Shown here in pieces: positions 8,777 to 34,213 of a DNA stretch of 64,000 nucleotides (its first letter is position 1; every line of letters starts with the position of its first letter). This DNA is from Pseudomonadota bacterium. Its GTDB lineage: Bacteria; UBA10199; 2-02-FULL-44-16; JBDRGF01. The stretch spans positions 17,623-81,622 of the forward strand of contig JBDRGF010000159.1 of the NCBI GenBank assembly GCA_043818055.1, written 5' to 3'. Both the position numbers and the translations under genes were made by a program. The notes beneath the pieces are model-generated. The model was not told where the DNA came from. It searched no databases and worked only from the letters and a program-made list of their open reading frames with translations.

Positions 8777-8818
8777 TTTTCGTCCTTTGCTTGAGTTGTT
8801 TTCGTTTTACCTTATTTA

Positions 8819-9841: not shown

Positions 9842-9859
9842 ATTGAACTGTCGATTTGT

Positions 9860-15929: not shown

Positions 15930-16922
15930 TCATTTCACTCTTGGGTTGAGAAGCCCATACATCTCTCCTAGAGCATAGCCAAAATGTTGCACTATATAAA
16001 CAGATATAACATAAAAAACTACAGATAATTTCTTTTTTTTAAAGCACATAAAAAAAGATAATATCGTAATGGCCAAAAAATATAATAACGGCAGAAAAAA
16101 CATTCTATTCTGAATAGAAAATAATGTGGAAAGCATGATCAATATAAAAATTATCGGCAAGACAAAACTTGGCTTCCACATGGCCGGATACCGTTTCAAA
16201 AGACGAGCTCTCCCTTTTCCATAACGAAACATGTTTTTCAACCATCTTGTGGGGGTAGGCCGCATTTTGTGCCACACCATGGATTCGGGGATAAAGACAA
16301 ATTTATGACCTGACAAAGAAAGTCTATAATTAAGATCGGCGTCCTCTGCCTCGCTAAAAAGTGATTCGTCATAACATCCAGCCTCAACAATCTTATCTTT
16401 TCTATATAGAACATTGAGACTTGAAAGACTTGTAACGTACCTGTGTTCTGCAAAACATCTTCCTTGCACACTATTAAAGCTCCCGGCATACGAATCAAGT
16501 GCAACACCGATTGCATTCATAAACTTAGAAGAATATTCAGGAGGCTTATTTCCGCCTCCCACAGCCACAACCCGATGATCCTTATTTGTCGCACGTTGAT
16601 AATTATCGACAAGAATGGTCAACCAATTTGACAAGGCCTCGCAATCGGCATCGATAAGAGCTATATGGTCGTATCGCGAGGCCTTGATACCTGCGTTTCT
16701 ACCCGCAGCAACTCCTTTTTTTGGTTCAATTATGAGAGTAACCTTCTTCCCTTGTCTCTTACAAAACTCTTCAACAATAGCTCTAGTGCAATCATTGGAA
16801 TTACCATCAACAACAATTATTTCATACTCACCAAGCCGATAATTCATATTCAGAAGCGACCTCAAACAGTCCCCTATATTTTTTTCTTCGTTAACGCATG
16901 GAACTATTACCGACACGTTCAT
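15930..16922 (-). CDS. Family 2 glycosyltransferase with C-terminal transmembrane segments
   Basis: VSVIVPCVNEEKNIGDCLRSLL...IIVVDGNSND and ALIDADC DxD, with a hydrophobic C-terminal tail. Confidence 0.8.
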   Translation of the reverse strand: MNVSVIVPCVNEEKNIGDCLRSLLNMNYRLGEYEIIVVDGNSNDCTRAIVEEFCKRQGKKVTLIIEPKKGVAAGRNAGIKASRYDHIALIDADCEALSNWLTILVDNYQRATNKDHRVVAVGGGNKPPEYSSKFMNAIGVALDSYAGSFNSVQGRCFAEHRYVTSLSSLNVLYRKDKIVEAGCYDESLFSEAEDADLNYRLSLSGHKFVFIPESMVWHKMRPTPTRWLKNMFRYGKGRARLLKRYPAMWKPSFVLPIIFILIMLSTLFSIQNRMFFLPLLYFLAITILSFFMCFKKKKLSVVFYVISVYIVQHFGYALGEMYGLLNPRVK

Positions 16923-16924
16923 GA

Positions 16925-18412
16925 TTACTGTCCTCTTCCAAGTTGTCCCATAAAATATTTTGAGAAAAAAACCCTTGCGGATTTCAGACTCCTATAGCCT
17001 TCCGATGGGTCTTTAATGGCCTGTTTTAGCTTCATAAACATATATGCAAACCTTAAATGATATTTTTTTAAATAGTCATCACAAAGAGATACCATCTCTT
17101 CTGATTTGAGACTAGCAGTATTAATCACACAATTGTGTAATCCATCGTTTGTCAACCATTGTGAAAAATCTTCTGTTTTGAGATATCCATGCTCCTTTGC
17201 CCATGAATATGCTTCTGTTCCGGGATAGACGTAGAGCGGATAAAACTGCATACTGTCGCAGTTTATCTTTTTGGAGAACTCATAGCTCTTCATCAGAGTT
17301 GTCTTGGTATCTCCGGGATTGCCAACCATTATGCAACCATGTACCAGAACACCGGCCTTCCTCGCGCTGTCAGCAAATTTATAATAAACTTCAACCCTCT
17401 CACCTTTGCACATCTTGTCAAGAATCTGTTGACATCCGCTCTCAAAACCAACTGTAACGAGACGACAACCCGCGCTCTTCATCAATTTCAAAAGATCATA
17501 ATCAAGATCACCGCGCACATTGCAATACCACTTTATTTTTATTCCGCGGCCAATAATTAACTCACATATCTTTTTCACCCTTTTACGATCTGCGCTGAAA
17601 CAATCATCCTCTATACCGATCTCTTTTACATCTGGAAAGTTCCTGACAATATATTCAAATTCATCGACAACATTCTCCGGAGAACGCGTTCTGTAGGATC
17701 TTGCATGGAATACTTGCGGATAAACACAAAAAAAGCACTTAAACGGACAACCCCTGCCCGTAATTATCATCATCATGGGATAATTAGCTGCCGCAAAAAA
17801 ATATTTACGGCAGTTAAGATGCTTTTTATATACCGATGAGACAAAGGGAATATTGTCAAGGTCCTTGATTTTCTCCCTTTCCTTATTGCGAACTATCACC
17901 CCGTCTTTTCTAAAGACCAAGCCGTCAACCTCACCAATGTCATTCTTGTTCATTATGACGCCTGCAAGGTCACGGATCGTGTAATCATATTCGCCGATGG
18001 CAACGGCATCGACCTTCGTGCTTAAGTTCACCGTCTGTTCGGGAAGTGCGGAGGGATGTGTCCCGACCATTACAATGAACGAGGCAGGATATTGATCTTT
18101 GATGGTCCCTGCAATATGAACATCACTGAATATGCTCGGTGTGCTTGTATCGATAACCGCAATTTCAGGGACGAAACCGTCTAACGAGTTAAAGACCCCT
18201 TCGATATCAAGTCCAAGGGCCGGCGCATCTATCAGCCTGACGTTATGACCAGCCTGTTCGGCAACAGCCGTCGCATAGGCAAGCCACAAGGGGTAGTATA
18301 GCGTTCCCCCCTTACAAACCGCGGGGCTGCGCGAGGTCCGTGAAAACTGATCAAGAAACGGAGGATTGAGAAATAATATGTTCATTGAATTGATTTGATG
18401 CGTTAGATCCAT
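16925..18412 (-). CDS. B12-binding domain radical SAM enzyme
   Basis: GRGCPFKCFFC CxxxCxxC after an N-terminal B12-binding-like domain. 495 aa. Confidence 0.8.
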   Translation of the reverse strand: MDLTHQINSMNILFLNPPFLDQFSRTSRSPAVCKGGTLYYPLWLAYATAVAEQAGHNVRLIDAPALGLDIEGVFNSLDGFVPEIAVIDTSTPSIFSDVHIAGTIKDQYPASFIVMVGTHPSALPEQTVNLSTKVDAVAIGEYDYTIRDLAGVIMNKNDIGEVDGLVFRKDGVIVRNKEREKIKDLDNIPFVSSVYKKHLNCRKYFFAAANYPMMMIITGRGCPFKCFFCVYPQVFHARSYRTRSPENVVDEFEYIVRNFPDVKEIGIEDDCFSADRKRVKKICELIIGRGIKIKWYCNVRGDLDYDLLKLMKSAGCRLVTVGFESGCQQILDKMCKGERVEVYYKFADSARKAGVLVHGCIMVGNPGDTKTTLMKSYEFSKKINCDSMQFYPLYVYPGTEAYSWAKEHGYLKTEDFSQWLTNDGLHNCVINTASLKSEEMVSLCDDYLKKYHLRFAYMFMKLKQAIKDPSEGYRSLKSARVFFSKYFMGQLGRGQ

Positions 18413-19059
18413 CCCTTGAACCAGAAATAAACGATGGATAGATATTCCCTGATAATTTCCGGCATGAATCTAATCCTATTGGGAATGTGATATATCTCCT
18501 TTTCATAACAAGACACCGGTGCAGGATATGCTTCAATTCCCATTTTCTTACAGATCAGGAGACTTCTGAACATGTGATATGAAGATGTGACCAACAATGA
18601 TTTTTTTAAACCTAAGGAATCCAATATCGGCAGTGAATTGGCAAGATTCTCATAGGTATTTTGTGAACGCTCTTCAGTGATAATATCATCTCCATTTACG
18701 CCCATTTTCACCATAAGATCTTTTATTGTGACCGATATCGGCGGATCTCCTTTTTTCAGCACACCTCCACAAATAATTATCTTCTTGGCATACCCTTCTT
18801 TATATAGAGATACTGCCTGCAACATCCTTTGAAACGAGTTCTGTTCGGGTATGTTTTTAGTAAAATATCCCGACGAAAGAAGAATGATCGAATCGGCTTG
18901 TTTTATCTCGGGTATAACCTCTAAATACGAATATAATCGATTGACAAGTGGCGTGAACACAAGAATGCATACAAGAAAATTCATGAGCAAAGATAAGAAA
19001 AAAACCGATCTATAGATTTTCTGTTTCGCTGTCATTAAAACTTTCGGGGTATCTGTCAT
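18403..19059 (-). CDS. DUF218 / YdcF-SanA-ElyC family membrane-anchored protein
   Basis: N-terminal TM segment and KKIIICGG...GDPPISV DUF218 core. Confidence 0.55.
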   Translation of the reverse strand: MTDTPKVLMTAKQKIYRSVFFLSLLMNFLVCILVFTPLVNRLYSYLEVIPEIKQADSIILLSSGYFTKNIPEQNSFQRMLQAVSLYKEGYAKKIIICGGVLKKGDPPISVTIKDLMVKMGVNGDDIITEERSQNTYENLANSLPILDSLGLKKSLLVTSSYHMFRSLLICKKMGIEAYPAPVSCYEKEIYHIPNRIRFMPEIIREYLSIVYFWFKGWI

Positions 19060-19079
19060 CTGGGATAGCTCGTTTCGTG

Positions 19080-19670
19080 TTATCTTATTATGTATTCTAC
19101 TCTGCCGACGATCATGTCATTGATACAATGAAGAAGCAAATTATGAATGATCTCAACATAACCATAGGCCTTGGAGTTGATCCAAAAATTTATTGAACCC
19201 AATGCACTCAAAGGATTTTTTTGATCGAACCCTGAAAATGTGATCACGGTCATATTTTTTTTCAATGCCTCTTCACAGGCGTTCAAAATGTTCTTAGACG
19301 AGCCACTACTGCTGATAGCTATCAAAACATCACCCTTACAACCGTAGTGTTCAACGCCCTTTTGAAACATCCTTTCATATCCATAATCATTAGCATATGC
19401 CGTCATCATCGGAGACCCGCTGATCGTCATAGCCCTTAAACCAGCATTTTTCGTCAAATCGACAGACATGTGTTCAGCTATTGCCGCCGAAGCGCCATTT
19501 CCTATCAATATTATCTTAGCCCCCCTATTCTTCGTGGCAATAAGACACTTTGTGGCATCAATCAACTTAGCCTTGTTGTTCTTTTTTCCGATATGGGCTT
19601 CAACAATACTGTTAAAGTCACAAAAAAACTCATCCAAAAAACTATTATAAAACTCGTTCGTCTCATTCAT
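19080..19670 (-). CDS. gmhA: SIS-domain sedoheptulose-7-phosphate isomerase
   Basis: KIILIGNGASAAIAEHMSVDL...DVLIAISSSGSSKNIL, the SIS fold typical of GmhA. 196 aa. Confidence 0.75.
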   Translation of the reverse strand: MNETNEFYNSFLDEFFCDFNSIVEAHIGKKNNKAKLIDATKCLIATKNRGAKIILIGNGASAAIAEHMSVDLTKNAGLRAMTISGSPMMTAYANDYGYERMFQKGVEHYGCKGDVLIAISSSGSSKNILNACEEALKKNMTVITFSGFDQKNPLSALGSINFWINSKAYGYVEIIHNLLLHCINDMIVGRVEYIIR

Positions 19671-19706
19671 ATATTAAAACACCTATGGAGGAATCGTTAA
19701 ATAATG

Positions 19707-21008
19707 TCACTGACAATTGCCATGAAGCTCTGGATACAAGGTTTTATTGTTATTTTTCTCATATTCAGCCAAAATCTGTCTGAATTCGGGAATGGTCATA
19801 CTTCCTTTCTTCTCAAGTGCAGGATAATAAAAATTCATAAAATCCGGATCATCTGCCAAAAAGCAGGCGTGATATCCTCCAAATGGAGTTTCTTTCAGAC
19901 CTCTTTCCCGTGCAACAGACAGTGGCTCCTTCATAACATTTCCCATGTAAACATGCATGTTAGCACAATTCATGACATCACCGTAGGGGGTCATATTTAT
20001 CATTTCTTTCGTCCCGGGACATCCGAACTGCTTCCCGTAATTGAAGTTCAGATGCCTGGTAACCCAGTTGTATGGTTTTATAATTTTCTCGTAATTTTTG
20101 ACATCTTCCTTGTCGAGCATAACCTCCTTGTTATGGAAATTGCCTACTCCTTTGGCAAATAGTGTGCACAGAAGCACCTGTTCCCGTTCCGCAAGCTCCA
20201 ACAACTCCCTGAAACCATCTGTATAGAGATTACCTTTGTGAACGCAGCAATTAATAACAACTTTAATACCATATTTTTTACTCAACCTGATATTTTCAAC
20301 AACCTTTTCAAAGCTCCCAGCCTTTTTTCTGAAGGCATTATGAATTTCAGGATAACCGCTGTCGAGACTATAATTGATCGTATCAACACCCAACTCGTAA
20401 GCTCTTTTGATCTTTGCTTCGTCAACAAGATAACCATTGGTGGTAATAATAATATGATTCTTCATCGGTTGCCATGCCCTGATAAACTCCTCCCAGTTTT
20501 TTACAACAAAAGGCTCTCCGCCTTCCATGCCAAACGTAGTGGCACCAAGCTTCATCGCCTCTTTCACAACTCTCGCATAATCGGAAGGTTTCATCTCCTG
20601 TCTCTTCCCCGACTCATCAATCCTTGCACAAAGACAATGATTGCAACTAAAGTTACATCTAAAGCTAACTGCAAACTCTATCCCTCTTAGAATATATTTT
20701 TTCATTCCCAGGTAGTGATAAACTTTCCCTCGGATCTCATTCCAAATAATCCTGAAGGGATAGAATGGCTTTCTCCAATGGATCCCATATTTAAAACGAA
20801 TGCGCCATAACGTAAGGAATTTTTTAATTGGATTGTATTGCCGTGTAATTATTACCCGTTTGCGTTTTGTCTGTTCTTCGGCTTCTTTCAATTTTTTCAT
20901 TATACGTCTGGACTCTTCCTGTGTTTTGGCAATCAGCTTAACATCGTCTTCAAGCGTACTAAATACCGACACCTTGTTTTGTGACGCAAATACACTACTC
21001 TCAAGCAT
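19707..21008 (-). CDS. Radical SAM enzyme with auxiliary-cluster-like C-terminus and ~100-aa N-terminal charged/coiled extension
   Basis: FRCNFSCNHC CxxxCxxC and GGEPF. C-terminal Cys cluster CPGTKEMINMTPYGDVMNC. The N-terminal extension may be an artefact of an upstream start. Confidence 0.7.
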   Translation of the reverse strand: MLESSVFASQNKVSVFSTLEDDVKLIAKTQEESRRIMKKLKEAEEQTKRKRVIITRQYNPIKKFLTLWRIRFKYGIHWRKPFYPFRIIWNEIRGKVYHYLGMKKYILRGIEFAVSFRCNFSCNHCLCARIDESGKRQEMKPSDYARVVKEAMKLGATTFGMEGGEPFVVKNWEEFIRAWQPMKNHIIITTNGYLVDEAKIKRAYELGVDTINYSLDSGYPEIHNAFRKKAGSFEKVVENIRLSKKYGIKVVINCCVHKGNLYTDGFRELLELAEREQVLLCTLFAKGVGNFHNKEVMLDKEDVKNYEKIIKPYNWVTRHLNFNYGKQFGCPGTKEMINMTPYGDVMNCANMHVYMGNVMKEPLSVARERGLKETPFGGYHACFLADDPDFMNFYYPALEKKGSMTIPEFRQILAEYEKNNNKTLYPELHGNCQ

Positions 21009-21082
21009 AAAATCGCTCCTTTTTGATCTGTAATTATAGTTTTATACTTAACCGAACACCAAGGAATTCTTCTCTCAAATTA

Positions 21083-22078
21083 TCATAACAAACCCTCTTT
21101 TCTAAGATTTTCAACTGTTTTGCTAATCGACTTTCTCCAATTGGTAATAGCGTACCCCAACTCTTTTATGGCCAATTCCGAAGAATAAAAAAGATTCTGC
21201 CGAATCATCTCTCCTACTATTTTAGTAATCGGTGTTTCTTTCTTCAGCAAATTAAAGATCAACTCAGCACCATACCCAAGCCAGGGCAGTATAAATCTCG
21301 GCAGTGGAATTTTAGGCGAAATTCCTCCGGTGGCATAGGCTATATCGCTAAAATATTCTTTAAAAGATATATTATCCCCACCTAAGATATATTTTTTTCC
21401 AGTAATACCCTTTTCATAGCATAGGAAAAGACCTCTTACTAAGTCATCTATATCTGTAAGGCAGACCCCGCCTGAAGGATATATTTTCATCTTACCTTGA
21501 GCAATAGCCTTAAAATTATCTAACTGAGTTCTCTTGATACCGTGCGATCCTATCACATTTCCGGGACAAACGATGATCGAGTCTAACCCCAAGCCAACCT
21601 CTCTAAGGACGGCCTGTTCTCCCAGATATTTTGTATAAGCGTAGGGATCTCTGTAGTTGTTAAAAACAAATTTTTCATCGGCCACTTCTCCATGTTCAGG
21701 GACACCTACAGCCGACACCGAACTGATATGGATCAGACGCAATCCTCCTTTTTCTCTGGTCATTCTCGCAACATTGCTGGCAACTGCAATGTTAATGATC
21801 TCCCTTAAACGTTGATCTCTTTTCAATGAAGAGCCACACGCGGCAAAATTATAAACAGCAACACACCCCTCCATGGCTTTAGCCAGCGCCATATTGTCAG
21901 TTAAATCTCCTTCAAAAGGAGTAAAAGAAAAACCGGTTAGGTTCTTCATTGAAGATGATTTCCGATGGAAGACAACAACCTCTACATCCTTTTCCTGTAA
22001 ATATCTGACTAAATTACTGCCAATAAATCCTGTCCCACCTATAAGTAGAATCCTATTATTATTTGTTTTTCTACCCAT
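21083..22078 (-). CDS. NAD-dependent epimerase/dehydratase (SDR family)
   Basis: ILLIGGTGFIGSNLVRYL and YAYTKYLGE YxxxK. Confidence 0.75.
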   Translation of the reverse strand: MGRKTNNNRILLIGGTGFIGSNLVRYLQEKDVEVVVFHRKSSSMKNLTGFSFTPFEGDLTDNMALAKAMEGCVAVYNFAACGSSLKRDQRLREIINIAVASNVARMTREKGGLRLIHISSVSAVGVPEHGEVADEKFVFNNYRDPYAYTKYLGEQAVLREVGLGLDSIIVCPGNVIGSHGIKRTQLDNFKAIAQGKMKIYPSGGVCLTDIDDLVRGLFLCYEKGITGKKYILGGDNISFKEYFSDIAYATGGISPKIPLPRFILPWLGYGAELIFNLLKKETPITKIVGEMIRQNLFYSSELAIKELGYAITNWRKSISKTVENLRKEGLL

Positions 22079-22086
22079 ATATATAT

Positions 22087-22866
22087 CTATCCCTTTATGC
22101 CTTTAATTATCATAATGGGTCTCCGCATAAAATCTGGGTTATCCATTCCAATCAAACTATCATCTTCTCTAAAAAGCTTTCTTCTATTTAGAAAGATAAA
22201 TGGTTTAATTACCAAAGATACAAACACTTTATAACACCACAGAATTAATGGTTGCTTCTTTTCTAATTTGAAGGATATGTTTTCAGAATATCTATTTTCC
22301 TCAGGTTCCGGTTTATAACCAAAAAATGTCTGCAATTTAATGATAAACATTCTTAATTGCACCAAAGATGGAATTGCTCTAATTAGTTTATATTCCTTTA
22401 TTTTCAGATTTTTTTTAACAGCCGTAATTATAAATTCTTTAGTTATTCGGCATCCATTTCCCGGGCCTAGAGGAACTAAAAGCAATAGCTCTCCATTTTT
22501 GGTCAGTAAATTGGCAAAGTTTTCTATTGCGGTTTCCGGATGCTCTATATGTTCAAGTGCAGAAAGATTAATTATTTTTGTAAAGGATAATTTGGACAAT
22601 CTCTTGGAATGTTCTCCAATACTGAGGTTGCCAAGGTGAGTATGAAGAAAAACCAGATTATTCAAGTTATATATCTCTTCATTTCTTTTTATTCTTAAAA
22701 TATCCCAATCAACACCGACCACATTAGCAACTTTCTTAGCAACCTGTGAGCCAATATAACCATCCCCACATCCCGCATCCATTATAATGTCATCTTTCTT
22801 GAATTCTATAAAATTGGGCAGAATTTTTAGTTTCCACAATACATCTAAATGATATTTTGATAACAT
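22087..22866 (-). CDS. Class I SAM-dependent methyltransferase
   Basis: IIMDAGCGDGYIGSQVAKK motif I. Confidence 0.7.
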   Translation of the reverse strand: MLSKYHLDVLWKLKILPNFIEFKKDDIIMDAGCGDGYIGSQVAKKVANVVGVDWDILRIKRNEEIYNLNNLVFLHTHLGNLSIGEHSKRLSKLSFTKIINLSALEHIEHPETAIENFANLLTKNGELLLLVPLGPGNGCRITKEFIITAVKKNLKIKEYKLIRAIPSLVQLRMFIIKLQTFFGYKPEPEENRYSENISFKLEKKQPLILWCYKVFVSLVIKPFIFLNRRKLFREDDSLIGMDNPDFMRRPIMIIKGIKG

Positions 22867-22891
22867 TTATCACCTCCAATAGCTCACAAGA

Positions 22892-24265
22892 TCACAGTTT
22901 TTCCGTCGTCCATTGGATATAATCCCTGATGGCGCCCCAATTCCTTGTTTTATAGAAGTATGTTAAGACGGATTTGACTCCAACATAAGATCTATAATGT
23001 TTAAACATTGCCCTTCTACAAAAATTATAGAGAACATTTTCGTCAAGATCTTTTCTATAGATAGAAAAATACGGATATTCTTTATCTGAGGTAAAATCAT
23101 ATTTATCCTTGCATCGTTCAAATAGTGTGCTTCCGGGCAATGTCCTCAATACCCCCCAGCTAAGAAAGTTTGCTCTGATTTCCTTTTGTAGCTGAAGGCC
23201 CATTTTTATATCTTCATCAGTTTCATCCGGGTTTCCCACCATAAAAAAAGCAAATGTCGTTATTTTAAGTTCATGGCACCACTTAAAGGCATTTCGTATA
23301 TGCTCTACGGTATAGCCTTTCCTCAATGACTTCAGAACCCTCGGCGAACCGGACTCCACGCCCAAAACTATAAAATACAAACCGGCCTTTTTCATTTTGA
23401 CCAATAGTTCCCTTGTTAAAAAATCTACCCTAGTGGTGCAGGTCCATGGCAGGTTAATTCTTTCTTTAATTAACAAATCACAAATATCAAAGGTTCTTTT
23501 TTCCAAAATGGTAAAATCATCGTCGAAAAACCTTATCTCTCTTATTGGAAGCCTCCCCTTCCAGTATTTTATCTCTTCGATAATCCGATCGGGCGACATT
23601 GATCTAAGGGTATTCTTAAAAACCGCTTTCGAACAAAAAATACATCTGCCCGGACAACCTCTTGTTGTAACCATTGTTAAGGGAATACCATACCACCCGT
23701 ATGGAGGATGAATTTTATATTTGCTCGAATCAACCTGTTCTAGGTCTGGGAATGGAAGGGTATCAAGATTCTCTATGTATTCCCGGGGGGGATTAATTAT
23801 TATCTCATCTCGTTTCCTAAAAGCAATGCCTTTTATATGATCTAACCTGTCTGATTTTAAAGATTCTACAACATCTACTATTGTATTCTCACCTTCTCCA
23901 ATCGCCACCAAATCAATGGAATCTATCTCTTGCAATACTTCCCTCGGAAGAGCTGAGGGATGCGAACCACCAACAATTATTTTTATTGTCGGAAACCATG
24001 ATTTTAATTTATTCGCCAATTCCTTAACAGTAACATATCTTCTGGTAAAAAAAGTAATCCCGATTAAGTCCGGATTATATTCCAATATCTTTTTTCTGAG
24101 CGCATAGTCTGATAATGGCTCAGCGCAAAGATCCAGTATCAACGCCTCATGATTATTAGCTTTCAGGAATGAGGATAAATACGACAGACTCAATGCTGGA
24201 AAAGGGATATTTGATTTTTCAGGCAAGGGATTTATTAATACGACTTTCATCTTATTCCTTTCCAT
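22892..24265 (-). CDS. B12-binding domain radical SAM enzyme
   Basis: TRGCPGRCIFC CxxxCxxC with an N-terminal B12-binding-like domain. Confidence 0.8.
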   Translation of the reverse strand: MERNKMKVVLINPLPEKSNIPFPALSLSYLSSFLKANNHEALILDLCAEPLSDYALRKKILEYNPDLIGITFFTRRYVTVKELANKLKSWFPTIKIIVGGSHPSALPREVLQEIDSIDLVAIGEGENTIVDVVESLKSDRLDHIKGIAFRKRDEIIINPPREYIENLDTLPFPDLEQVDSSKYKIHPPYGWYGIPLTMVTTRGCPGRCIFCSKAVFKNTLRSMSPDRIIEEIKYWKGRLPIREIRFFDDDFTILEKRTFDICDLLIKERINLPWTCTTRVDFLTRELLVKMKKAGLYFIVLGVESGSPRVLKSLRKGYTVEHIRNAFKWCHELKITTFAFFMVGNPDETDEDIKMGLQLQKEIRANFLSWGVLRTLPGSTLFERCKDKYDFTSDKEYPYFSIYRKDLDENVLYNFCRRAMFKHYRSYVGVKSVLTYFYKTRNWGAIRDYIQWTTEKL

Positions 24266-24270
24266 TAAAA

Positions 24271-25407
24271 TCAGAATAAATTATTCATTTTAATTTCATA
24301 CCCGATGTTTAATTTTTGCATGCATTGCCGACAAATATCGAATGTATTATAATTTTCCCCGGTTACAAATAAACCGCGGATTTTCTGTAATTTTCTACTA
24401 TTCCAGATATCAGATAAATTGTCTTCGTTTATATTTCCCAAAACCAATCCTTTCTCGATTTTGTGAGAGAAGGCTGTGCAACATATTGAAACATCTCCGT
24501 TTATATATACCGCCAGTTGCAACCATGGTGACATGCATAAGAAGCGCCGTCCCCTGGTGTACTTAAACCATGGAAGATAGTAGTCGGAATCCTTAAGCCG
24601 ATACCCTTTTATGGAATCCTTCTCCATTTTATTGACGCCATTTAACAAGCTGGGAAGACTGCTCTTGAGACCAATCTTTGAGGAAAGCTTCTCGGCCTTC
24701 CTTAAAGTGGCAATGATTTTTTCCAGATCATAATTCTCTCTGAACTCCCTTGCGGTTTCTTCTGTAAATTGTGAAAAGTTTACCGGAACAAAACTAACGA
24801 ATGAACTATTTAACTCTTTTGCCAGATAGACAAATGGGATAATGTCGTCTAAGTTGTTTTTCTGAATAACAAAATCCAGACGGCATATTTCTCTTTTAAC
24901 ATCAAGTTCCTTTCTAATCCTATCCAGTCGTCTGATATTACCTAATAATTGATCAAATCCATTGTTTTTCCGTATCTTTTCGTAGGTCTCCTTTGTCGCT
25001 GCATCCATGGAAAATTTGATTAAATTGATGCCATTTTTTATTAAATTGTATGCAGTTCTTTCGTCAAGCAATAGACCGTTTGTAGTTATGAATGATTTAG
25101 ATTTATTTTCGCTAGCTATCCTCACCAATTCGCAGATGTCCTTATTCATCAACGGTTCAGCGGAAATGCCACCGAATAACATCATTTTTGGCTTTATCTG
25201 CGAATACAGCTTTTCTAATGTCTTAATGCTGAGAAATTGCTTCTCAGATTGCTTAAAATATGATTGATTCCGATAACACATTTTACAGCTCAAATTGCAA
25301 ACATTAGATGTGTCTACATTCACCGCAATCGGTTGATTTAGAATCTTTTTATGTTTTAAAATCAGCGAAATGAAAGCCTTTATATATTCTGACATAAACC
25401 GTCCCAT
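24271..25407 (-). CDS. Radical SAM enzyme with SPASM/twitch C-terminal domain
   Basis: VDTSNVCNLSCKMC and C-terminal CMSPW...ICC...CRQC Cys-rich SPASM-like region. Confidence 0.8.
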   Translation of the reverse strand: MGRFMSEYIKAFISLILKHKKILNQPIAVNVDTSNVCNLSCKMCYRNQSYFKQSEKQFLSIKTLEKLYSQIKPKMMLFGGISAEPLMNKDICELVRIASENKSKSFITTNGLLLDERTAYNLIKNGINLIKFSMDAATKETYEKIRKNNGFDQLLGNIRRLDRIRKELDVKREICRLDFVIQKNNLDDIIPFVYLAKELNSSFVSFVPVNFSQFTEETAREFRENYDLEKIIATLRKAEKLSSKIGLKSSLPSLLNGVNKMEKDSIKGYRLKDSDYYLPWFKYTRGRRFLCMSPWLQLAVYINGDVSICCTAFSHKIEKGLVLGNINEDNLSDIWNSRKLQKIRGLFVTGENYNTFDICRQCMQKLNIGYEIKMNNLF

Positions 25408-25409
25408 AA

Positions 25410-26498
25410 TTATTCAATTGTTATTGAAGAAAACTTTCCTTTTTTTAATTTATTCGCTATTAACAAGGCTATTTTTTCAAACCTGTATCCTAGAAAGTTT
25501 GTAACTGCATCAGTCAAACTAAGCCTTATGCCCGAAGGAATACCTACTATAGGGGGAGTGCCCAAGACAATACAATTACCGCATAGTGGCAACAGATCAA
25601 GATAATCTCCATCGAGCATTGATTGTCTTAATTTAAGCATTTTATTGCTGTTCCAAATATCTATTAATTTGTTTTCCTTGATATTTCCTATAACATATTC
25701 ATGATTGGTATCATAAACACATGGCACAACATCGCCATTCCAGGTGATACATACTGTACTCCACAATCGCGAGCACGGCGGAAAAAAGCGGTCATGTTTT
25801 CTAGGGTTAAAGGTATCTACACCCTCAAAAGTGCTACCCCAGGTTGAAACCTCCCTTAAACGGACCTCATCAATAAGACCATTGAATTTTTTCAAAAAAA
25901 CCTCTTTTTCTTCTCCACTACAATCCCCTATTTCGAGCATTAAGATGGATAATACGGTATAGGGAGATTTTTTTTCTTTTCTCTTTTTCAATTCTAGGAA
26001 GTAAAAAATGTTATCAAGGGTTTTTTCAAAATCAGCACCGACCCTTGCCTTTTCATAGGTTTCCTTATTAAACCCGTCAAAAGCAAAGCTTATACTGGCT
26101 ATTCCGGAATACAATAACTGCTCCACCTTTTCCTTAGTCAAGAGGGTAGCATTTGTATTTAGCAAGATCTTTATGTCATTAGAACTTGCATATCTTACCA
26201 TATCGAAGAATTGAGGGTGAAGCAGAGACTCGCCCCCAACTGCCAGGATGATTGCAGATGTATAATCCTTAACCTCATCTATTATCTTCTTGAACAGACC
26301 ATAATCCATATAGCCCTTTTTAACACTTGTCATTCCAGTCCCCGTAGGACACATAATACATTTCAAGTTGCAATGGTTGGTTGGCTCTAACCAAATAAAA
26401 CTAGGGGGATTATCTAAATGCACCTTTTTCCTGTGATAATTTTTTAAGGCCCTTATATTATTGAATAGTATTTTAATTTTTTTTATCATATCTGACAT
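25410..26498 (-). CDS. Radical SAM enzyme with SPASM/twitch C-terminal domain
   Basis: EPTNHCNLKCIMC and C-terminal CSRLW...PC...CGNC. Paralog of the preceding gene. Confidence 0.8.
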   Translation of the reverse strand: MSDMIKKIKILFNNIRALKNYHRKKVHLDNPPSFIWLEPTNHCNLKCIMCPTGTGMTSVKKGYMDYGLFKKIIDEVKDYTSAIILAVGGESLLHPQFFDMVRYASSNDIKILLNTNATLLTKEKVEQLLYSGIASISFAFDGFNKETYEKARVGADFEKTLDNIFYFLELKKRKEKKSPYTVLSILMLEIGDCSGEEKEVFLKKFNGLIDEVRLREVSTWGSTFEGVDTFNPRKHDRFFPPCSRLWSTVCITWNGDVVPCVYDTNHEYVIGNIKENKLIDIWNSNKMLKLRQSMLDGDYLDLLPLCGNCIVLGTPPIVGIPSGIRLSLTDAVTNFLGYRFEKIALLIANKLKKGKFSSITIE

Positions 26499-26512
26499 TT
26501 ATTAATTACTAA

Positions 26513-27964
26513 CTAACCGCATATCCGATGGTTTATCATAGCTACTTTTAAAGCTTCAAAATAATTTGTATAGGACTTCTTGGTCTTTTGAGTATAAAGT
26601 TGTCTCAGCAATACATATGGACGAAAAACCAACATTTCTAAGAGGAAGAGGCTAAAGCGTGGATACGTGAATAGATTAAGGTTAGCATTCTTTTGCCCCA
26701 ACGAGAGAAACTTTGATCTATAGTATAATAATTCATTTCTCGATAGAGTTGACCGAAAATTGGGATTTTCCGTTAACGAAAACGATAGATCATCCAACAT
26801 CTCTCCATCTTGCTCATTATAGTAGGAAGTACCTGGCATAGGCATATAATAGTTTACTGTTACAAAAGTTGGTTTGACCTCTTTCAACAATTCTACGGTT
26901 TGGTCCATATCGCGTTTGGTCTCTCCAGGAAGGCCTATGATAAGAAATATATATGTATATATACCAGCGTCGTTGATAGCCTTGATTGCCGTTTTAACCT
27001 GTTCAATTGTAATCCCCTTATTCATATCAATAAGCATTCTTGGAGACCCAGATTCAACCCCTAGTGCCAATTGCATAAAGCCCGCTTCCTTCATCAATTT
27101 CAACGTTTCTTTTGAACCTACCTTATCTACTCTTGTCTGTGCATATATCTTCAATTTTATCTTCTCTTTTAATAGTCCTTCACAGAATTCCGTAACGCGT
27201 CTATCAGTGAAATAAAAGAGGTCGTCCAGAAGGACAAGTCCCTTAATCTTATATCTGTCTATCTGCCATTTGATCTCATCTATTATTTCGCCGATAGGCC
27301 TTTCGCGGTACACGTTCCTTATTGGCTCAGTACAAAACTTACATCTAAATGGACATCCTCTATTGGCCATCAGAAAACCCGTCTTGATGAAATGCCCAGG
27401 TATACCACCCAGCTTGATATTTGTATAGTGAACATAGTCCACTAAATCAACTGCGGGATATAAAAGATTATAGAGATCCTTCGGTTCTCTTCGAGATGTT
27501 TGGAAAACCTTCCGTTCTTTCAAGAAGGCAATGCCTTTTATGTCTTCCAATGTCTTACTTGAATCATAAGCATTTATGAGTTCAACCGCTGTTTCTTCAC
27601 CTTCGCCAATTACTACCACATCGGCTGAATAGCTTAGATATTTTTCAGGTGAAAAAGAGGGGTCTTTTCCACCGCATATGATGATTTTATCCTTGGTAGT
27701 CTCTCTTACCTTTTTTATTATCCTTGAGGCAACCTTTCTATTCCAACTTATGACTCCTAAACCAATGAAATCGGGATCAAAAATGTAGAGCTCCTCCCAC
27801 AATTTCTTATTTTTTCGGGTATTAAAATCTTCATCGATAAATTCGATTATCTTCACCTCATGTTGTGCTCTTCTAAGATAACTAGCTACATATAGTAAAC
27901 CCAAGGCAGGACGCCATCCTTTTCTAGGATTTATAAGTAATATTTTCTTTCTCATATTATACAA
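26513..27964 (-). CDS. B12-binding domain radical SAM enzyme
   Basis: NRGCPFRCKFC CxxxCxxC with an N-terminal B12-binding-like domain. Confidence 0.8.
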   Translation of the reverse strand: MYNMRKKILLINPRKGWRPALGLLYVASYLRRAQHEVKIIEFIDEDFNTRKNKKLWEELYIFDPDFIGLGVISWNRKVASRIIKKVRETTKDKIIICGGKDPSFSPEKYLSYSADVVVIGEGEETAVELINAYDSSKTLEDIKGIAFLKERKVFQTSRREPKDLYNLLYPAVDLVDYVHYTNIKLGGIPGHFIKTGFLMANRGCPFRCKFCTEPIRNVYRERPIGEIIDEIKWQIDRYKIKGLVLLDDLFYFTDRRVTEFCEGLLKEKIKLKIYAQTRVDKVGSKETLKLMKEAGFMQLALGVESGSPRMLIDMNKGITIEQVKTAIKAINDAGIYTYIFLIIGLPGETKRDMDQTVELLKEVKPTFVTVNYYMPMPGTSYYNEQDGEMLDDLSFSLTENPNFRSTLSRNELLYYRSKFLSLGQKNANLNLFTYPRFSLFLLEMLVFRPYVLLRQLYTQKTKKSYTNYFEALKVAMINHRICG

Positions 27965-28967
27965 CCTGTTTTATCCGCAAGAAATCGCATCTTCTGCAGA
28001 AGTCAAATTCTTCCTGGTGTTTCCTGAGATAATTGAATTTCTCACCACACCATACTTCTCTTATGTCCTTTTCCAGCATGTTGCCCATATTTAGTTCTTT
28101 AGAAAAACAACAAGGATAGACATCGCCATTTTGAGCAATAAATACGAAATCTTGAAATCTGTAACAATATGTATCGAGTCTTAGAAGAAACTTGAAATAC
28201 TTGTAAAAAAACCCTTTCCATCCATCGAATATTTGATCTTGGAGATAGTCAATTCTTATCTTGTATCTCTTTCTTAACCTAGCAAATTCATTAAATATCT
28301 CTCTTTCTTCTATCAAGTTAGGCCGTTTCATGTCAGGGACAAACCTTAAATCAACGCGAACGACATTGATCCTATCAACACAATTTTCAGCACCCCACTT
28401 GATTATCTCATAAACATCTTGCACTTTATCGCTAAACAGAATGGGCTGAAGCGTAACTCTTGGTGTTAAAGAACCCAGTTCCTTTTTCATCTCAATCAAT
28501 CTTTTTATGTTCCTTAGCGCTTTTACATTTGGATGGGATATTTCACTGTTTTCCTTCAGACTTTCAATGGAAAACGAAATCCAGTCCAGTTTTGACCGAA
28601 TTACTTTCTCCATCTTCTCTTCATCTTCTAACAACAAACCATTTGTCGTTATCTGAACTTCCAAACCTCTTTCCTTACAGTATCTTATGGCCTCATAAAA
28701 TCTAGGGTATGTTAATGTTTCTCCAATTCCCACCAAAATCACAGTCTTTACCGCTTCAAGTCTATCTACCACTTTCTTGAATAACTCGTAATCCATATGA
28801 GTTCGTTCGATATCAATATAATTTCTGATGCACATCTTACAATCTAAATTACAACAATTGGTAATACATATCTGTGCAAAACGAGGTGAGCTCTCTGGTA
28901 TATGCAAGATTTTCCTTATCGCTGTAGAGATAAAGCTTCTACTCATATTAATAAACAAGCCTCTCAT
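27957..28967 (-). CDS. Radical SAM enzyme with SPASM/twitch C-terminal domain
   Basis: ICITNCCNLDCKMC and C-terminal PCC...CRRCDF. Confidence 0.75.
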   Translation of the reverse strand: MRGLFINMSRSFISTAIRKILHIPESSPRFAQICITNCCNLDCKMCIRNYIDIERTHMDYELFKKVVDRLEAVKTVILVGIGETLTYPRFYEAIRYCKERGLEVQITTNGLLLEDEEKMEKVIRSKLDWISFSIESLKENSEISHPNVKALRNIKRLIEMKKELGSLTPRVTLQPILFSDKVQDVYEIIKWGAENCVDRINVVRVDLRFVPDMKRPNLIEEREIFNEFARLRKRYKIRIDYLQDQIFDGWKGFFYKYFKFLLRLDTYCYRFQDFVFIAQNGDVYPCCFSKELNMGNMLEKDIREVWCGEKFNYLRKHQEEFDFCRRCDFLRIKQVV

Positions 28968-30012
28968 CTAAATTCTCCTGACTTTGCTGGGCACGCTTGA
29001 TTAGCTCTTTATTAAAGATATAATAAAGATAGCTAATGAACGCTACAAAAATTAAAGACGCCTCACCAAGTATTCTCGAAACCACTACAAAAATCCCAGC
29101 CTCAGGCGCATTAACACCCATCAATACCAAAACCCCAAACCAACTGACATCAAGTGATCCAAGAGCCCCTGGAATAAATGTTGCAATAATTATGACCTGA
29201 ACCACGGCAGAGCCTAATAAGATATAGTAAAAAGGGATGTTGATCTGTAAAGCTAAAATAATAATATAAACCCGTAATGTTATGCATAATTGTTTCAAAC
29301 AGGAGTAAAAAAATAATCTAATGGCAATACTTCTACTAAATGGGTTGAGTTTTTCGGACATTATAGAATTGTTCTGAAACCTTCTTTTGAAAAAGAAAAC
29401 CTTGGAAACGATCTTAAGTAAAAACCTATAAACCCGTATTATCAATCCGAATATCATTCCATTTTTATAAACAATCAAACCAAACAATGAGAGGATCGAC
29501 ACAACAATAAATGTAACCGAGGCCTCTAAAGATAAAATGTCAACAAAAAAAAGCAATGATGGGATAACCAGTAAAATGAGTATTAATAAATCAAATAATT
29601 GTTCGATAAAGATTGCCAGTACCCCTTTGTCTGCTGGTATTTTATGTAATAACTTCATGGAAATAGTTTTAAGGCCATAATTTCCACTTTGTGGTATTAT
29701 AGTATTCAATATCATAGCTATTGCACAATTGTATAAAAAATAACCTTTGGGGATTTTACTAATGTCCACTAAATTATTTAAAATCATTTTCCATTTTAAA
29801 CCTGAAATACTAAGAATGAAAAAATTTGTAATTACTATAGCAATGAGATAATAATATTTAATATTACGAAGATTATTTATAACCATTTTTGGTGAAATGC
29901 CGGCGAGCCTTATCATCAAGACAATCAAAAAAAAACCCAGAACAGCTAAAGATGAATTAATGATAATTTTATAATGTTGTTTAAAAAAAATTTTACCTGA
30001 AATTAATTTCAT
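28948..30012 (-). CDS. UPF0104 / lysyl-PG-synthase-TM-like 'flippase-like' membrane protein
   Basis: 354 aa with about 8 TM segments and the N-terminal pattern typical of the YbhN/UPF0104 family. Confidence 0.5.
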   Translation of the reverse strand: MKLISGKIFFKQHYKIIINSSLAVLGFFLIVLMIRLAGISPKMVINNLRNIKYYYLIAIVITNFFILSISGLKWKMILNNLVDISKIPKGYFLYNCAIAMILNTIIPQSGNYGLKTISMKLLHKIPADKGVLAIFIEQLFDLLILILLVIPSLLFFVDILSLEASVTFIVVSILSLFGLIVYKNGMIFGLIIRVYRFLLKIVSKVFFFKRRFQNNSIMSEKLNPFSRSIAIRLFFYSCLKQLCITLRVYIIILALQINIPFYYILLGSAVVQVIIIATFIPGALGSLDVSWFGVLVLMGVNAPEAGIFVVVSRILGEASLIFVAFISYLYYIFNKELIKRAQQSQENLDERLVY

Positions 30013-30041
30013 TCTTTATCCCCATCTCAACACCTATCCAA

Positions 30042-31301
30042 TCACTTGTTCAACCTCATTCTGAAAAAATCTTTTACACTGCTGGCAATGTAGCGAATGT
30101 CTTTTTCAGTCAAGCTGGGATGGCAAGGCAAGTAGATAATTTTGCCGTTAAGCTTACTGGCATTAGGAAAAACACTGTTAACATAAGGTTGAAAACGCTT
30201 CATCTGAGTGATATCTTCGGCCGATTCATCTTGGGCATCAATTTTGTTTTTTAGAAGATATTCTTGAAGGTCTTTTTTTCTTTCCGTCCAAATAGCATAG
30301 TGGACACAAACATGTTCTCTATCGGTTGGATCGGATGGGATATGAAGCTCTTTGATACTTTTTAGTTCATTATTTAGAATTTTGAGATACTCTCGACGCC
30401 GTTGATTAGTTGAGTCAATCGTCATAATCTGGCGCAGTCCCATCCTTGCCTGAATACTATACATATCTATCTTGAAATCTTCTGGGACGCCGTTGTAGTA
30501 AGGTTTTTTGATTCGAAACCACGAAGCAAACCTTTCATCTTCTTCTATCTGATATCTGTAACTAAGTGGAAAGAGAGTAAATCTATGTATCAAAGGCGTA
30601 TTGAGAAATTTGAGCAAGCAGCCTTTGAAAATACCATGGTAAAGATTCTTCACCGAAATAGTTTTGAAGTCTCGTTTCAACTCACGTAGTCGTTCAATAA
30701 AGATTTGGTCGTTGGAAGTGACCATGCCTCCACCAAATCCGTAAAAGGATTTTCCGTATCCAAAACTGAAAGCACCAATGTCAAAAGAACCAACTCGCCT
30801 ATCCTGAAACCGGCTACCACAAGAGCGAGCACAGTCTTCAATAACACGGAGATTATACTTCCGAGCTACATCCATAACAGCCTTTATATCGGCAGGAAGA
30901 CCGTTAAGATGCGCGAGCAAAATGACTCGGGTTTTGGAGGTGATAGCATTTTCTATTTTTGAGCTATCAATATTCAATGTTTCAAAGTCAACATCAACAA
31001 ATATTGGCTTCAATCCGGCCAAGAGAACCACAGCTGCATCCACCCAAAAGGTAAATGCAGGAAGAATAACCTCATCACCATCCTCTAAATTCAAGGCCTT
31101 AAGGCAAAAGTAGAGCGCGCTGCGGCATTTTGGAAAGGCTACTGCTTCTCTGGTGCCAATAAATCGGGCGTAGGCCCTTTCAAATTCAGATAACAATAAC
31201 CGACCCCCGGCCATAGATGGATTGAGAACGCGAAACAGGGCTGACATTACCTCGACTGTTTTAAGATCAACCCAGACCCTAGGATATGCCTTAAACATCA
31301 T
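30042..31301 (-). CDS. DegT/DnrJ/EryC1/StrS-family PLP-dependent aminotransferase (second copy)
   Basis: DVARKYNLRVIEDCARSCGSRFQDRRVGSFDIGAFSFGYGKSF covers the lysine-bearing region. Confidence 0.8.
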   Translation of the reverse strand: MMFKAYPRVWVDLKTVEVMSALFRVLNPSMAGGRLLLSEFERAYARFIGTREAVAFPKCRSALYFCLKALNLEDGDEVILPAFTFWVDAAVVLLAGLKPIFVDVDFETLNIDSSKIENAITSKTRVILLAHLNGLPADIKAVMDVARKYNLRVIEDCARSCGSRFQDRRVGSFDIGAFSFGYGKSFYGFGGGMVTSNDQIFIERLRELKRDFKTISVKNLYHGIFKGCLLKFLNTPLIHRFTLFPLSYRYQIEEDERFASWFRIKKPYYNGVPEDFKIDMYSIQARMGLRQIMTIDSTNQRRREYLKILNNELKSIKELHIPSDPTDREHVCVHYAIWTERKKDLQEYLLKNKIDAQDESAEDITQMKRFQPYVNSVFPNASKLNGKIIYLPCHPSLTEKDIRYIASSVKDFFRMRLNK

Positions 31302-31423
31302 TCACCAACCATTTCTTCACATTTCTGATAATAAAATTGTCCCAAATCCAGACCCTTCTCTTCCATTTACGGTTTATCAATCAATATACCATCACGCTAT
31401 TTTACTCTCCAACAACCTATCTA

Positions 31424-31546
31424 TTACACCATGTGATATATCACGTACTTCCGTGCCGCTTCTGCTGACATTACCAATCTAGATTCGATTTCTTCGACCA
31501 CTTGCCGTTTAAACCCTTTCTCAAATTTCCTTCTCGTCACTCCCAT
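31424..31546 (-). pseudogene. Remnant of an IS3-family transposase orfA (N-terminal HTH only)
   Basis: A 40-aa ORF MGVTRRKFEKGFKRQVVEEIESRLVMSAEAARKY resembles the IS3/IS911 OrfA N-terminus, and no remainder of the IS is present. Confidence 0.4.
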
Positions 31547-31736
31547 CACAAATCTCCCCTCTAGCTAAGTTCTCTGAGATTTGCAACATCCTTTCTCATT
31601 TTTTAGTCCAAAATCTCAACCCATAAGTATGCATATCAAAGTAAACCAAGAGGCAATATCGAGTTCGAGGCACACGAAACTGAATTGATCAATACTACAT
31701 GCATTTTTTCACTTTAGAAAAATATTTATTCAAGCG

Positions 31737-31907
31737 ATGACGTAACGGCACTGCCTCCATTACCAAAAATGAAGATGTTTACCGCATTTTCATACGCTAG
31801 AATAAGTTCAGAAATAAAACCCTTAAACTCTCTCTCATCAACTTTATCAAAGATGTTGATCAGTTCGGTAAAATATTGTCTCAAGAAGACCTCTTTCATA
31901 ATAAACT
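31737..31907 (-). pseudogene. gmhA: Truncated gmhA (N-terminal 56 aa of sedoheptulose-7-P isomerase)
   Basis: MKEVFLRQYFTELINIFDKVDEREFKGFISELILAYENAVNIFIFGNGGSAVTSSLE* parallels the N-terminus of the intact gmhA at 19080..19670. It sits directly downstream of hddA. Confidence 0.5.
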
Positions 31908-31908
31908 A

Positions 31909-32877
31909 TTACTCGCGGAATAACAATTTGGAACCTTCCGAATCGATGCTAAATGGTAGCGACCTACACCCCATTTTCTGTTCCAATTGTCCATGATCCA
32001 CCGCATAAACAAGCATAAAACCAGCCCCGCCAGCGCCCAGAAGCTTACCACCCGACGCTCCACCCTCTATTGCCTTTTTGTACATTGCATCGATCTCATG
32101 ATTAGAAATACCTGACGCAAGTTCCCTTTTGTAACACCACCCTTTATTTAAATATTCTCCGACTAAATCGTACTTACCCTTCGAGAGTTTGTCCTTTAGA
32201 TCATCTGCCATGGAAGCCATGTCTTTCACGCACAGCATCATTGAATCCTGAGATAAGTTATCTCTTTGTCTGGAAAGAATATCTGCCGATCGCCTCTCTC
32301 CACCCGTGTAATATAAACGTAAACATTCTTCAAACTTCTTAATAGTAACGATGTCCAATTCGATCGGATACACATTTACAGTTTCATCCTTATTAAATCT
32401 AATATAATTAAGTCCTCCGTAGGCAACGGCATATTGGTCCTGTTTTCCAACAGGATCTCCAAGAACATCCATCTCTATTTCACATGATTCCCTAGCCAAT
32501 CGTTCCTTTGAAACTTCAATTCCCCTATAAGCATAGAGAGCATTCAAAAGGCCGACTGTAAACGAACTGGATGAACCAAGGCCAGTACCCTTAGGGACAT
32601 CAGCAAAGCTTGCTATCTCGATACCTTTATCAATTTCCACTTTTTCCAAACAAGCCTTAACAATCGGATGCTTAATATCTTTAACGTTGGAAACATCTTC
32701 GGTTTTAGAATATTTTACGCGTATCTTGTCATGAAAGTAAGGATGAATCACTATGTACATGTACTTTCTAATCGCAGCACTCACAACAGATCCATAGCCA
32801 CTCTTCGAATAAAATTCTCTCAAATCGCTTCCTCCACCGACAAAACTCACTCTAAAAGGAGTTCTCGTTATTATCAT
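31909..32877 (-). CDS. hddA: GHMP-family D-glycero-alpha-D-manno-heptose 7-phosphate kinase
   Basis: MIITRTPFRVSFVGGGSD...PKGTGLGSSSSF GHMP motifs. Confidence 0.7.
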   Translation of the reverse strand: MIITRTPFRVSFVGGGSDLREFYSKSGYGSVVSAAIRKYMYIVIHPYFHDKIRVKYSKTEDVSNVKDIKHPIVKACLEKVEIDKGIEIASFADVPKGTGLGSSSSFTVGLLNALYAYRGIEVSKERLARESCEIEMDVLGDPVGKQDQYAVAYGGLNYIRFNKDETVNVYPIELDIVTIKKFEECLRLYYTGGERRSADILSRQRDNLSQDSMMLCVKDMASMADDLKDKLSKGKYDLVGEYLNKGWCYKRELASGISNHEIDAMYKKAIEGGASGGKLLGAGGAGFMLVYAVDHGQLEQKMGCRSLPFSIDSEGSKLLFRE

Positions 32878-32878
32878 A

Positions 32879-34213
32879 CTATATCGCCATCCTACTGTTT
32901 AAAATCACATTGACCGCTTCTTCCAAATTATCGCAGATAAAATCTGGGTTTATTGAAGTATTTTGATTTTTATCATCGTTATTTTTCCGAAGTAATATAG
33001 ATCTCAACCCTGCATTAATAGCGGCTTGAATATCTATCACTGAATCACCTATCATCCATGAGGATACAAGATCGATGTTATATTGGCTAGCCGCTTTCAT
33101 TATCATTCCCGTCTTCGGTTTTCTACAATCACAGACAATCTTGAACAAAGGATTTTCTTCAGGATATCCCTTATCGGGATGATGCGGACAGAAATAAATC
33201 TCGTCAACATATACCCCGTTTTTACCCAGCAAGGTCTCAAACTTATCGTGAATACTTTTTAGCGTTTCAAGAGAACAAAGATTTCTGGCTACGACTGGCT
33301 GATTCGTAACCACAATTGACAGATAGCCAGATTCGTTGATACGCTTGATGGCCGGTGTTGAAAACGGTAACAACTCGAGATCCTCCGACCTATGCAACAG
33401 ATCTACCTCCTTTACCAAGGTGCCGTCTCTATCCAAAAAGATCGCCGGTCTCTTATTTTTCTTTGAAAGTCTTTTAATTTTACCGTTCGCAAAATCTGAC
33501 TTGACCTTTTCCAGCCTATCGACCGTTCCTACATCTTTGATATACTCAGTGGTTTTGTATCCGCAAAGTTTTTCGAAATTCAGCATGCGAGGAAAGACAT
33601 CTTTAACAAAATCCGAAGCGACACCTTTGCTGATGTATTTAAAAATCCGCGGCGAAAGAACGTACATTGCGGCATTGATCTGATTTGGATAGCATTCCCT
33701 ATCGACGCTCTTTGGCAAAAAACCGACTATCTCCGATTTTACGTCTGTCAACACGATATCGCTGTCATATGGATGATCGTTGGGGTGAACAACAAGAGTT
33801 GCTGCTGCGCATTTTTCTTTATGATATTCAAAAAGATCGTCAAGATCCAGATCGAACATGACATCGCCATATGCAAGAAGAAAGTCCTCATCTATCTCAT
33901 TTTCCAGCGCCTTCAAGCAGCCCGATGTCCCCATTGGCTTATTTTCCAGATAGTGTCTAATATCGATTCCGTGTTCGCTACCGTTGCCAAAATAATCTTC
34001 AATCACATTTCCCATGTATCCTGAAAGAATGATCACTTCCTTTATCCCATGCCTTCTCATGACGTCGATCTGATGCTCGAGTATCGGCTTGCCGGCAATT
34101 TTCAGCATCGGTTTAGGGCAATCGAATGTCAAAGAATGAAGACGCTCCCCACGTCCTCCTGCCAGTATCACTGCTTTGCGAACAGAATGTTGTAACCGAA
34201 CTAAGCTTCTCAT
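32879..34213 (-). CDS. Bifunctional sugar-1-phosphate nucleotidyltransferase (HddC-like) / HAD D,D-heptose-1,7-bisphosphate phosphatase (GmhB-like)
   Basis: N-terminal AVILAGGRGERL...KPML NTP-transferase domain. C-terminal FLDRDGTL...VTNQ HAD motifs I/II of the GmhB type. Confidence 0.7.
   Translation of the reverse strand: MRSLVRLQHSVRKAVILAGGRGERLHSLTFDCPKPMLKIAGKPILEHQIDVMRRHGIKEVIILSGYMGNVIEDYFGNGSEHGIDIRHYLENKPMGTSGCLKALENEIDEDFLLAYGDVMFDLDLDDLFEYHKEKCAAATLVVHPNDHPYDSDIVLTDVKSEIVGFLPKSVDRECYPNQINAAMYVLSPRIFKYISKGVASDFVKDVFPRMLNFEKLCGYKTTEYIKDVGTVDRLEKVKSDFANGKIKRLSKKNKRPAIFLDRDGTLVKEVDLLHRSEDLELLPFSTPAIKRINESGYLSIVVTNQPVVARNLCSLETLKSIHDKFETLLGKNGVYVDEIYFCPHHPDKGYPEENPLFKIVCDCRKPKTGMIMKAASQYNIDLVSSWMIGDSVIDIQAAINAGLRSILLRKNNDDKNQNTSINPDFICDNLEEAVNVILNSRMAI

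Follow-up and report, generated by a model that had tools for sequence, protein, structure and literature searches.

Gene content and setting of the locus

The window, by which we mean the whole 64-kb stretch of DNA analyzed here, carries a polysaccharide locus at about 1-49 kb with a GC content of 0.32-0.40, and beyond 50 kb GC is 0.44-0.50. Within this locus, 607 bp without a long open reading frame (ORF) separate hddA from a gene for a DegT-type aminotransferase (31302-31908); this stretch is referred to as the scar. All genes around it lie on the minus strand and are read in the order hddC/gmhB fusion, hddA, 607-bp stretch, DegT aminotransferase gene. The features discussed below are, in reading direction:

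32879-34213, minus strand: intact hddC/gmhB fusion, coding for a nucleotidyltransferase and a HAD-IIIA phosphatase, which opens the heptose cassette
31909-32877, minus strand: hddA, heptose kinase, with GHMP_kinases_N and GHMP_kinases_C domains
31726-31899, minus strand: gmhA fragment ORF of 57 codons, with ATG at 31899 and stop at 31726-31728, starting 9 nt past the hddA stop
31639-31734, minus strand: degenerate gmhA, about codons 56-87, of which codons 73-84 are recognizable and codons 56-72 are not
31615-31638, minus strand: left terminal inverted repeat of an IS3-family element (TGATATGCATACTTATGGGTTGAG), outer end at 31638
31547-31614, minus strand: IS leader, running from the left repeat to orfA, from DNA alignment and direct reading
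31349-31546, minus strand: pseudogene of orfA that retains the HTH-encoding codons 1-64 of 116, from tblastn and from DNA and family alignments
31302-31348, minus strand: possible orfA codons 65-77, of weak similarity, ending in VGE and reaching the junction with the DegT start
30042-31301, minus strand: DegT/DnrJ/EryC1-type aminotransferase (Pfam, 242 bits), first gene past the scar
19080-19670, minus strand: second SIS/GmhA-like gene, intact, in the same cluster, a candidate replacement for gmhA

The hddC/gmhB fusion contains the Pfam domains NTP_transferase and Hydrolase_like, is matched by the NCBIfam GmhB and HddC models, and shares 54-57% identity over about 430 aa with its homologues in the loci L002 and L006, which marks it as full length. 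The hddA product scores 155 bits against the NCBIfam HddA model, under the equivalog cut-off, and aligns over its full length, at 58-66% identity, with the products of 13 genome loci and many metagenome loci. On the other side of the scar, the N-terminus of the DegT protein is complete: it is 54% identical over 413 aa to its homologue in L003, an Omnitrophota metagenome-assembled genome (MAG), and the alignment runs from residue 2 at the start of that gene. No clear Shine-Dalgarno sequence is seen at the DegT start (31298-31330), where the bases before the ATG derive from the IS; AAGGAGG precedes the L003 homologue. Translation of DegT may be affected.

The sugar locus also holds seven radical-SAM genes on the minus strand, at 16925-28967 of the window. 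Three are of the B12-binding type (16925-18412, 22892-24265, and 26513-27964), three are of the SPASM type (24271-25407, 25410-26498, and 27957-28967), and one is a plain radical-SAM gene (19707-21008). An NAD epimerase gene, a methyltransferase gene, a DUF218 gene, and the SIS gene at 19080-19670 are interspersed among them. This unusually dense radical-SAM set suggests extensive heptose modification.

A gmhA fragment downstream of hddA

A preliminary description of this DNA had placed an N-terminal gmhA fragment with a premature stop downstream of hddA, and tblastn and profile matches bear this out. Its coordinates (31737-31907, 56 aa) were a few bases off at each end; the ORF occupies 31726-31899 and has 57 codons. 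These comprise gmhA codons 1-55 in their original frame (31735-31899), two unrelated codons, and the stop. Residues 1-55 align with the N-terminus of SIS/GmhA-like proteins of 185-198 aa encoded at the same place in related loci, with 41-56% identity to the closer copies; identity is 49% to the L006 protein, 42% to that of L003, and 32-36% to those of Prevotella-group loci. When the L006 SIS protein was searched against the whole window with tblastn, it matched 31735-31899 (49% over 55 aa, E = 1.5e-11). A profile built from 10 syntenic SIS genes gave 36 bits in the window through profile positions 5-56 of 190 only, and positions 57-190 found no match in any frame of 31250-31960.

Taken alone, the fragment cannot be classified. 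Only noise, with nothing above threshold, was returned for it from Pfam, NCBIfam, and PDB sequences; BLASTP gave no alignment between it and the window's own SIS gene (19080-19670); and a word-indexed search of 5.8 billion proteins retrieved only the fragment itself, with no homologue of similar length. Its identity as gmhA therefore comes from synteny with the gene that follows hddA in relatives. The fragment combines homology to GmhA-type SIS proteins with linkage to hddA, gmhB, and hddC. It retains the GNGGSA loop, past which the SIS sequence is lost or scrambled, and it lacks a complete SIS domain, along with the catalytic and metal-binding residues that lie downstream of the loop. The 57-codon ORF is a gmhA pseudogene fragment and not a functional member of the family. 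In the NCBI annotation, 31726-31899 is entered as a stand-alone 'hypothetical protein' (ABIE74_12340) and is not flagged as a pseudogene.

Past codon 55, gmhA continues in a degenerate form. Codons 73-84 (FSFVCLELDIAS, 31649-31684) are found in the -1 frame and in register, opposite FRFVCLSDNVPS of the family. In a fixed-register test that allowed three frames, the score was 29.1, against 8.4 +/- 3.1 in 5000 shuffles (p = 2e-4). When the next 96 nt were aligned locally without that constraint and with frameshifts tolerated, the outcome was marginal: three of the four relatives tried gave p values of 0.05-0.11, and the remaining one gave 0.29; thus the fixed-register test is the only significant one for gmhA past codon 55, and the profile search is empty there. 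Matches to LNK and FRV in the third frame, read from translations, were rejected because their offsets were inconsistent. Since the gmhA trace runs on to about codon 87, the stop at 31726 is a local lesion and not the IS junction. The premature stop of the preliminary description thus exists, but it does not mark where the IS begins, which is at 31638.

No frame is recognizable in codons 56-72 (31688-31734), even though both flanks are recognizable and length is kept to within 1 nt. Simple decay does not account for the loss of these codons, codons 1-55 being so well preserved.

Conserved order of the heptose cassette in relatives

The comparison set consisted of 13 genome loci fetched via hddA at 47-66% identity. 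A SIS gene directly follows hddA in 11 of these. In 10 of the 13, it encodes 185-198 aa, begins no more than a few tens of bases past hddA, and aligns with the fragment over its first 55 residues; the eleventh locus, L004, has a more divergent SIS copy. The metagenome count took in only the 41 loci whose sequence extends at least 250 nt beyond hddA, and in 23 of them the same SIS gene lies 10-156 nt after hddA, with up to 56% identity to the fragment. The hddA-linked SIS proteins match SIS_2 at 58-62 bits, and their best NCBIfam models are those for gmhA (TIGR00441, about 107 bits, below the equivalog cut-off of 209).

The order fused hddC/gmhB, hddA, gmhA found in L006 is identical to that proposed as ancestral for the window. 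An ancestral gmhA-hddA-hddC/gmhB arrangement had been proposed beforehand from the window alone, and it agrees with the L006 order as well as with the genome and metagenome counts. The genome and metagenome scans contained no relative closer than 66% hddA identity, and thus no empty site or site with an intact IS was found in them.

Wider gene content is also shared. In the L003 MAG, positions 5291-12965 carry hddC, hddA, gmhA, an epimerase gene, two rSAM/SPASM genes, a DegT gene, and a B12 rSAM gene, all homologous to genes at 19080-34213 of the window (28-54% identity) and arranged in a different order. In L006, a DUF218 gene and a B12 rSAM gene lie directly upstream of a GT2-like gene and hddC/gmhB, which resembles 15930-19059 of the window. 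It seems that the heptose cassette, together with these radical-SAM, DegT, and epimerase genes, makes up a gene pool that is conserved across phyla but shuffled. In a further metagenome locus, L038, the gene after hddA (4983-5078) matches only residues 1-32 of the fragment (47%) and may be another truncated or divergent gmhA.

Remnant of an IS3-family element

The second part of the scar is the left end of an insertion sequence. Window position 31638 is the first IS base (TGATATGC...); the DNA alignments to L022 and L023, two contigs carrying related elements, start there (64% over 78 nt, E = 2.4e-4). By hand count, 18 of 24 positions of the left repeat match the left repeat of L022, and the window repeat starts with TG. 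The IS left end falls directly after gmhA codon 87-88. Inward of the repeat, the leader contains a GGGGAG ribosome-binding site 7 nt before the orfA ATG.

The orfA sequence itself is disrupted. It reads from the ATG at 31546 to a stop at 31424-31426, giving 40 codons (ORF 31424-31549). An insertion of 2 nt creates a double stop (31421-31426), an insertion of 4 nt lies 24 nt further on and offsets it, and in the DNA alignment two nonsense codons, TAG at 31397-31399 and TAA at 31367-31369, stand in place of sense codons. Searched against the whole window with tblastn, the L022 OrfA matches across these lesions (31349-31546, 59% over 66 aa, E = 3.7e-17), and the orfA read-through is 49% identical over 82 aa to the protein P0003 (E = 3e-21). 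Codons 65-77 are less clear, as BLASTP reaches residue 82 for some family members and a 3-aa gap is required. The 40-aa OrfA stub with an HTH described earlier at 31424-31546 is therefore an exact ORF and was correctly assigned to the IS3 family, but the remnant is longer than had been stated, with at least 64 codons. Both small ORFs singled out in that description accordingly show significant similarity in tblastn against the window, one to GmhA (E = 1.5e-11) and the other to IS3 OrfA (E = 3.7e-17).

The stub alone gives little. All of its Pfam and NCBIfam matches are sub-threshold: BrkDBD at 19-22 bits, IS66 TnpA at 17.5, and HTH_Tnp_1 at 13.9 once stops are removed; among PDB sequences, too, nothing rose above threshold. 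An exhaustive phmmer search of 1.84 billion representative proteins returned four matches at E <= 1e-3. Two of these, with the lowest E values (9.6e-6 and 1.6e-5), are PF01527 proteins with 42-44 bits against a cut-off of 24.1, and the other two are fragments of 61-70 aa with only sub-threshold PF01527. Nothing was found for the stub in the word-indexed search of 5.8 billion proteins, and tblastn against 72,556 plasmids gave one meaningless match (E = 10). One relative of the stub, P0002 (153 aa), joins an OrfA N-terminus to a second transposase-like N-terminus (KKHHTKEFKAKVV...) and looks like a nested IS or a fused gene call.

The full-length relatives define the family. A search with P0003 yielded OrfA proteins of 116 aa (PF01527), mostly on contigs of 1.3-1.5 kb. 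In 9 of 10 element contigs fetched, orfA is followed by an orfB of 272-290 aa (HTH_21 + rve + rve_3) in the -1 frame with a 4-nt overlap; the tenth, L017, ends 390 nt into orfB. Element ends were defined from flank comparisons of L015 with L016 and of L022 with L023. The unit common to L015 and L016 is 1314 bp long and is bounded by TGGTATGCGCCCC... and its imperfect inverse ...GGGGCGCAGTCCA, that is, by TGG...CCA inverted repeats.

Among the IS3-family hallmarks given in two sources (PMC4433286, PMC5771124) are an orfA and an orfB that overlap, a DDE transposase, and ends of the TG...CA type. The stub's full-length relatives resemble IS911, IS3, IS150, and ISSau2 in their length of about 1.3 kb, an OrfA with the PF01527 HTH, an OrfB with HTH_21 and rve, and TG...CA repeats. 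In these relatives, an ATGA motif forms the overlap of orfA with orfB; L022 showed no obvious A6G slippery site. The window differs from such elements in that only a left repeat, a leader, and some 55-65% of orfA are left in it, all of them decayed. Target-site duplications of the IS3 family are short (3-4 bp); none is present here, the right IS end and the gmhA sequence downstream of it having been deleted. No orfB-like sequence occurs anywhere in the 64-kb window (tblastn, E <= 1), the right repeat is absent from it, and only chance-level matches were found there to other copies of the scar or of the inverted repeats. What the window carries is thus a remnant and not an element.

The two ORFs could also be real small genes, one for a micro-protein and one for a small regulator of the HTH type. 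Each begins at a plausible start codon, GGGGAG is a good ribosome-binding site for the stub, and NCBI lists the 57-aa ORF as a protein. We nevertheless find this reading barely credible, since both ORFs align with the N-termini of much longer proteins, homology runs past their stops in shifted or interrupted frames, the 57-aa ORF has no homologue of similar length among 5.8 billion proteins, and the 57-aa piece is without SIS catalytic motifs beyond GNGGS. This corrects the annotation, in which a pseudogene fragment of gmhA stands as a 'hypothetical protein' of NCBI and an IS3-family remnant passes for 'intergenic' DNA.

Origin of the scar

With a probability of about 0.9, 31302-31908 is the non-functional debris of an IS insertion and a subsequent deletion in an hddC/gmhB-hddA-gmhA cassette. 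An IS3-family element of about 1.3 kb, oriented like the operon, would first have entered gmhA at about codon 87-88. A later deletion would have taken the rest of orfA, orfB, and the right IS end, and along with these the 3' two-thirds of gmhA (about 100 codons) and whatever DNA preceded the DegT start codon, leaving DegT undamaged. The remains have decayed: past codon 55, gmhA has acquired frameshifts and stops, and orfA carries two insertions and two nonsense codons. Disruption by IS insertion and deletion had been put forward before the relatives were compared; the full-length IS3-type relatives, the left terminus at 31638, and the lack of orfB in the window all uphold it. The order of the insertion and deletion events is one that we infer.

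A different sequence of events is conceivable, in which gmhA was already dead when the IS arrived, the lesion in codons 56-72 having come first, or in which the IS remnant was recombined in from a locus that carried DegT. The sharp loss of similarity at codon 56, 96 nt from the IS boundary, would fit the former. Repeated rearrangement is indicated by the comparison of the window with L003 and L006, which share content and differ in order. We regard this history as rather unlikely; the end state and the conclusion that the stretch is a scar are the same in either case.

Insertion and deletion in the genome also have to be weighed against an error of assembly. The window comes from a MAG labelled Pseudomonadota, and copies of this IS family sit mostly on isolated contigs of 1.3-1.5 kb, a sign that the IS breaks assemblies. 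If the contig had been mis-joined inside a repeated IS, hddA with the gmhA fragment and the DegT gene would not be true neighbors. An independent contig of 787 nt (L001) reproduces hddA, the gmhA fragment, and the IS left end with 100% identity. It is the only independent contig, and it ends in the orfA remnant at 31498, short of the orfA/DegT junction. Because the right junction is without an independent contig, a small chance of mis-assembly remains. However, the orfA segment is decayed, with indels and stops, and is not active multi-copy sequence that would offer a shared k-mer path; no second copy of any scar sequence is present in the 64-kb window; and homologues of DegT and of the radical-SAM genes that follow it are linked to the heptose cassette in L003 as well. 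A mis-join is therefore highly improbable.

The debris might instead have been put to use. The IS remnant would then have been co-opted to give DegT and the downstream radical-SAM operon a translation-initiation region, and perhaps a promoter, and the scar would be kept as a regulatory element. A promoter-like site does occur in the IS remnant (31411-31383), and promoter-like sites overall are no commoner than in shuffles. Terminator-like sites number four, against 0.7 in shuffles; each of these falls within DegT or hddA, and the scar has none. Rfam gave no match to the scar at E <= 1. We consider such a role quite improbable and retain the reading of the scar as non-functional debris.

Remnants of insertion sequences occur at the junctions of O-antigen and capsule gene clusters. 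The window is alike in that a truncated IS adjoins a truncated sugar-pathway gene in a low-GC polysaccharide locus, and it is a typical instance. The scar is ordinary for polysaccharide loci and reveals no new mechanism or system; what it preserves is a single step in the rearrangement of a mosaic polysaccharide locus for heptose and radical-SAM functions.

Heptose pathway and a second SIS gene

The loss of gmhA leaves an intact SIS gene at 19080-19670 of the window. Its product scores 89-95 bits against NCBIfam phosphoheptose isomerase models, below their cut-offs. It belongs to the same family at 25-30% identity, with 28-30% to the products of hddA-linked SIS genes (E = 1.7e-17). It retains the GNGxSA, AYxND, SxSGxSxN, and E..H...H motifs. 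Functional replacement of the lost gmhA by this second gene, as put forward in the preliminary description, is plausible from its sequence.

Synthesis of GDP-heptose employs an isomerase, a kinase, a phosphatase, and a guanylyltransferase (PMC10680097), and the window locus has the same enzyme set. Known GDP-heptose genes differ from those of the window in that hddC and gmhB are fused here and the hddA-linked gmhA is truncated; in C. jejuni, gmhA adjoins hddA, as it does in the window. None of the heptose enzymes of the window reaches its NCBIfam equivalog cut-off, and their substrate and nucleotide specificities are therefore putative. The cluster probably still makes GDP-heptose by this pathway, and heptose synthesis here is predicted to depend on the second SIS gene.
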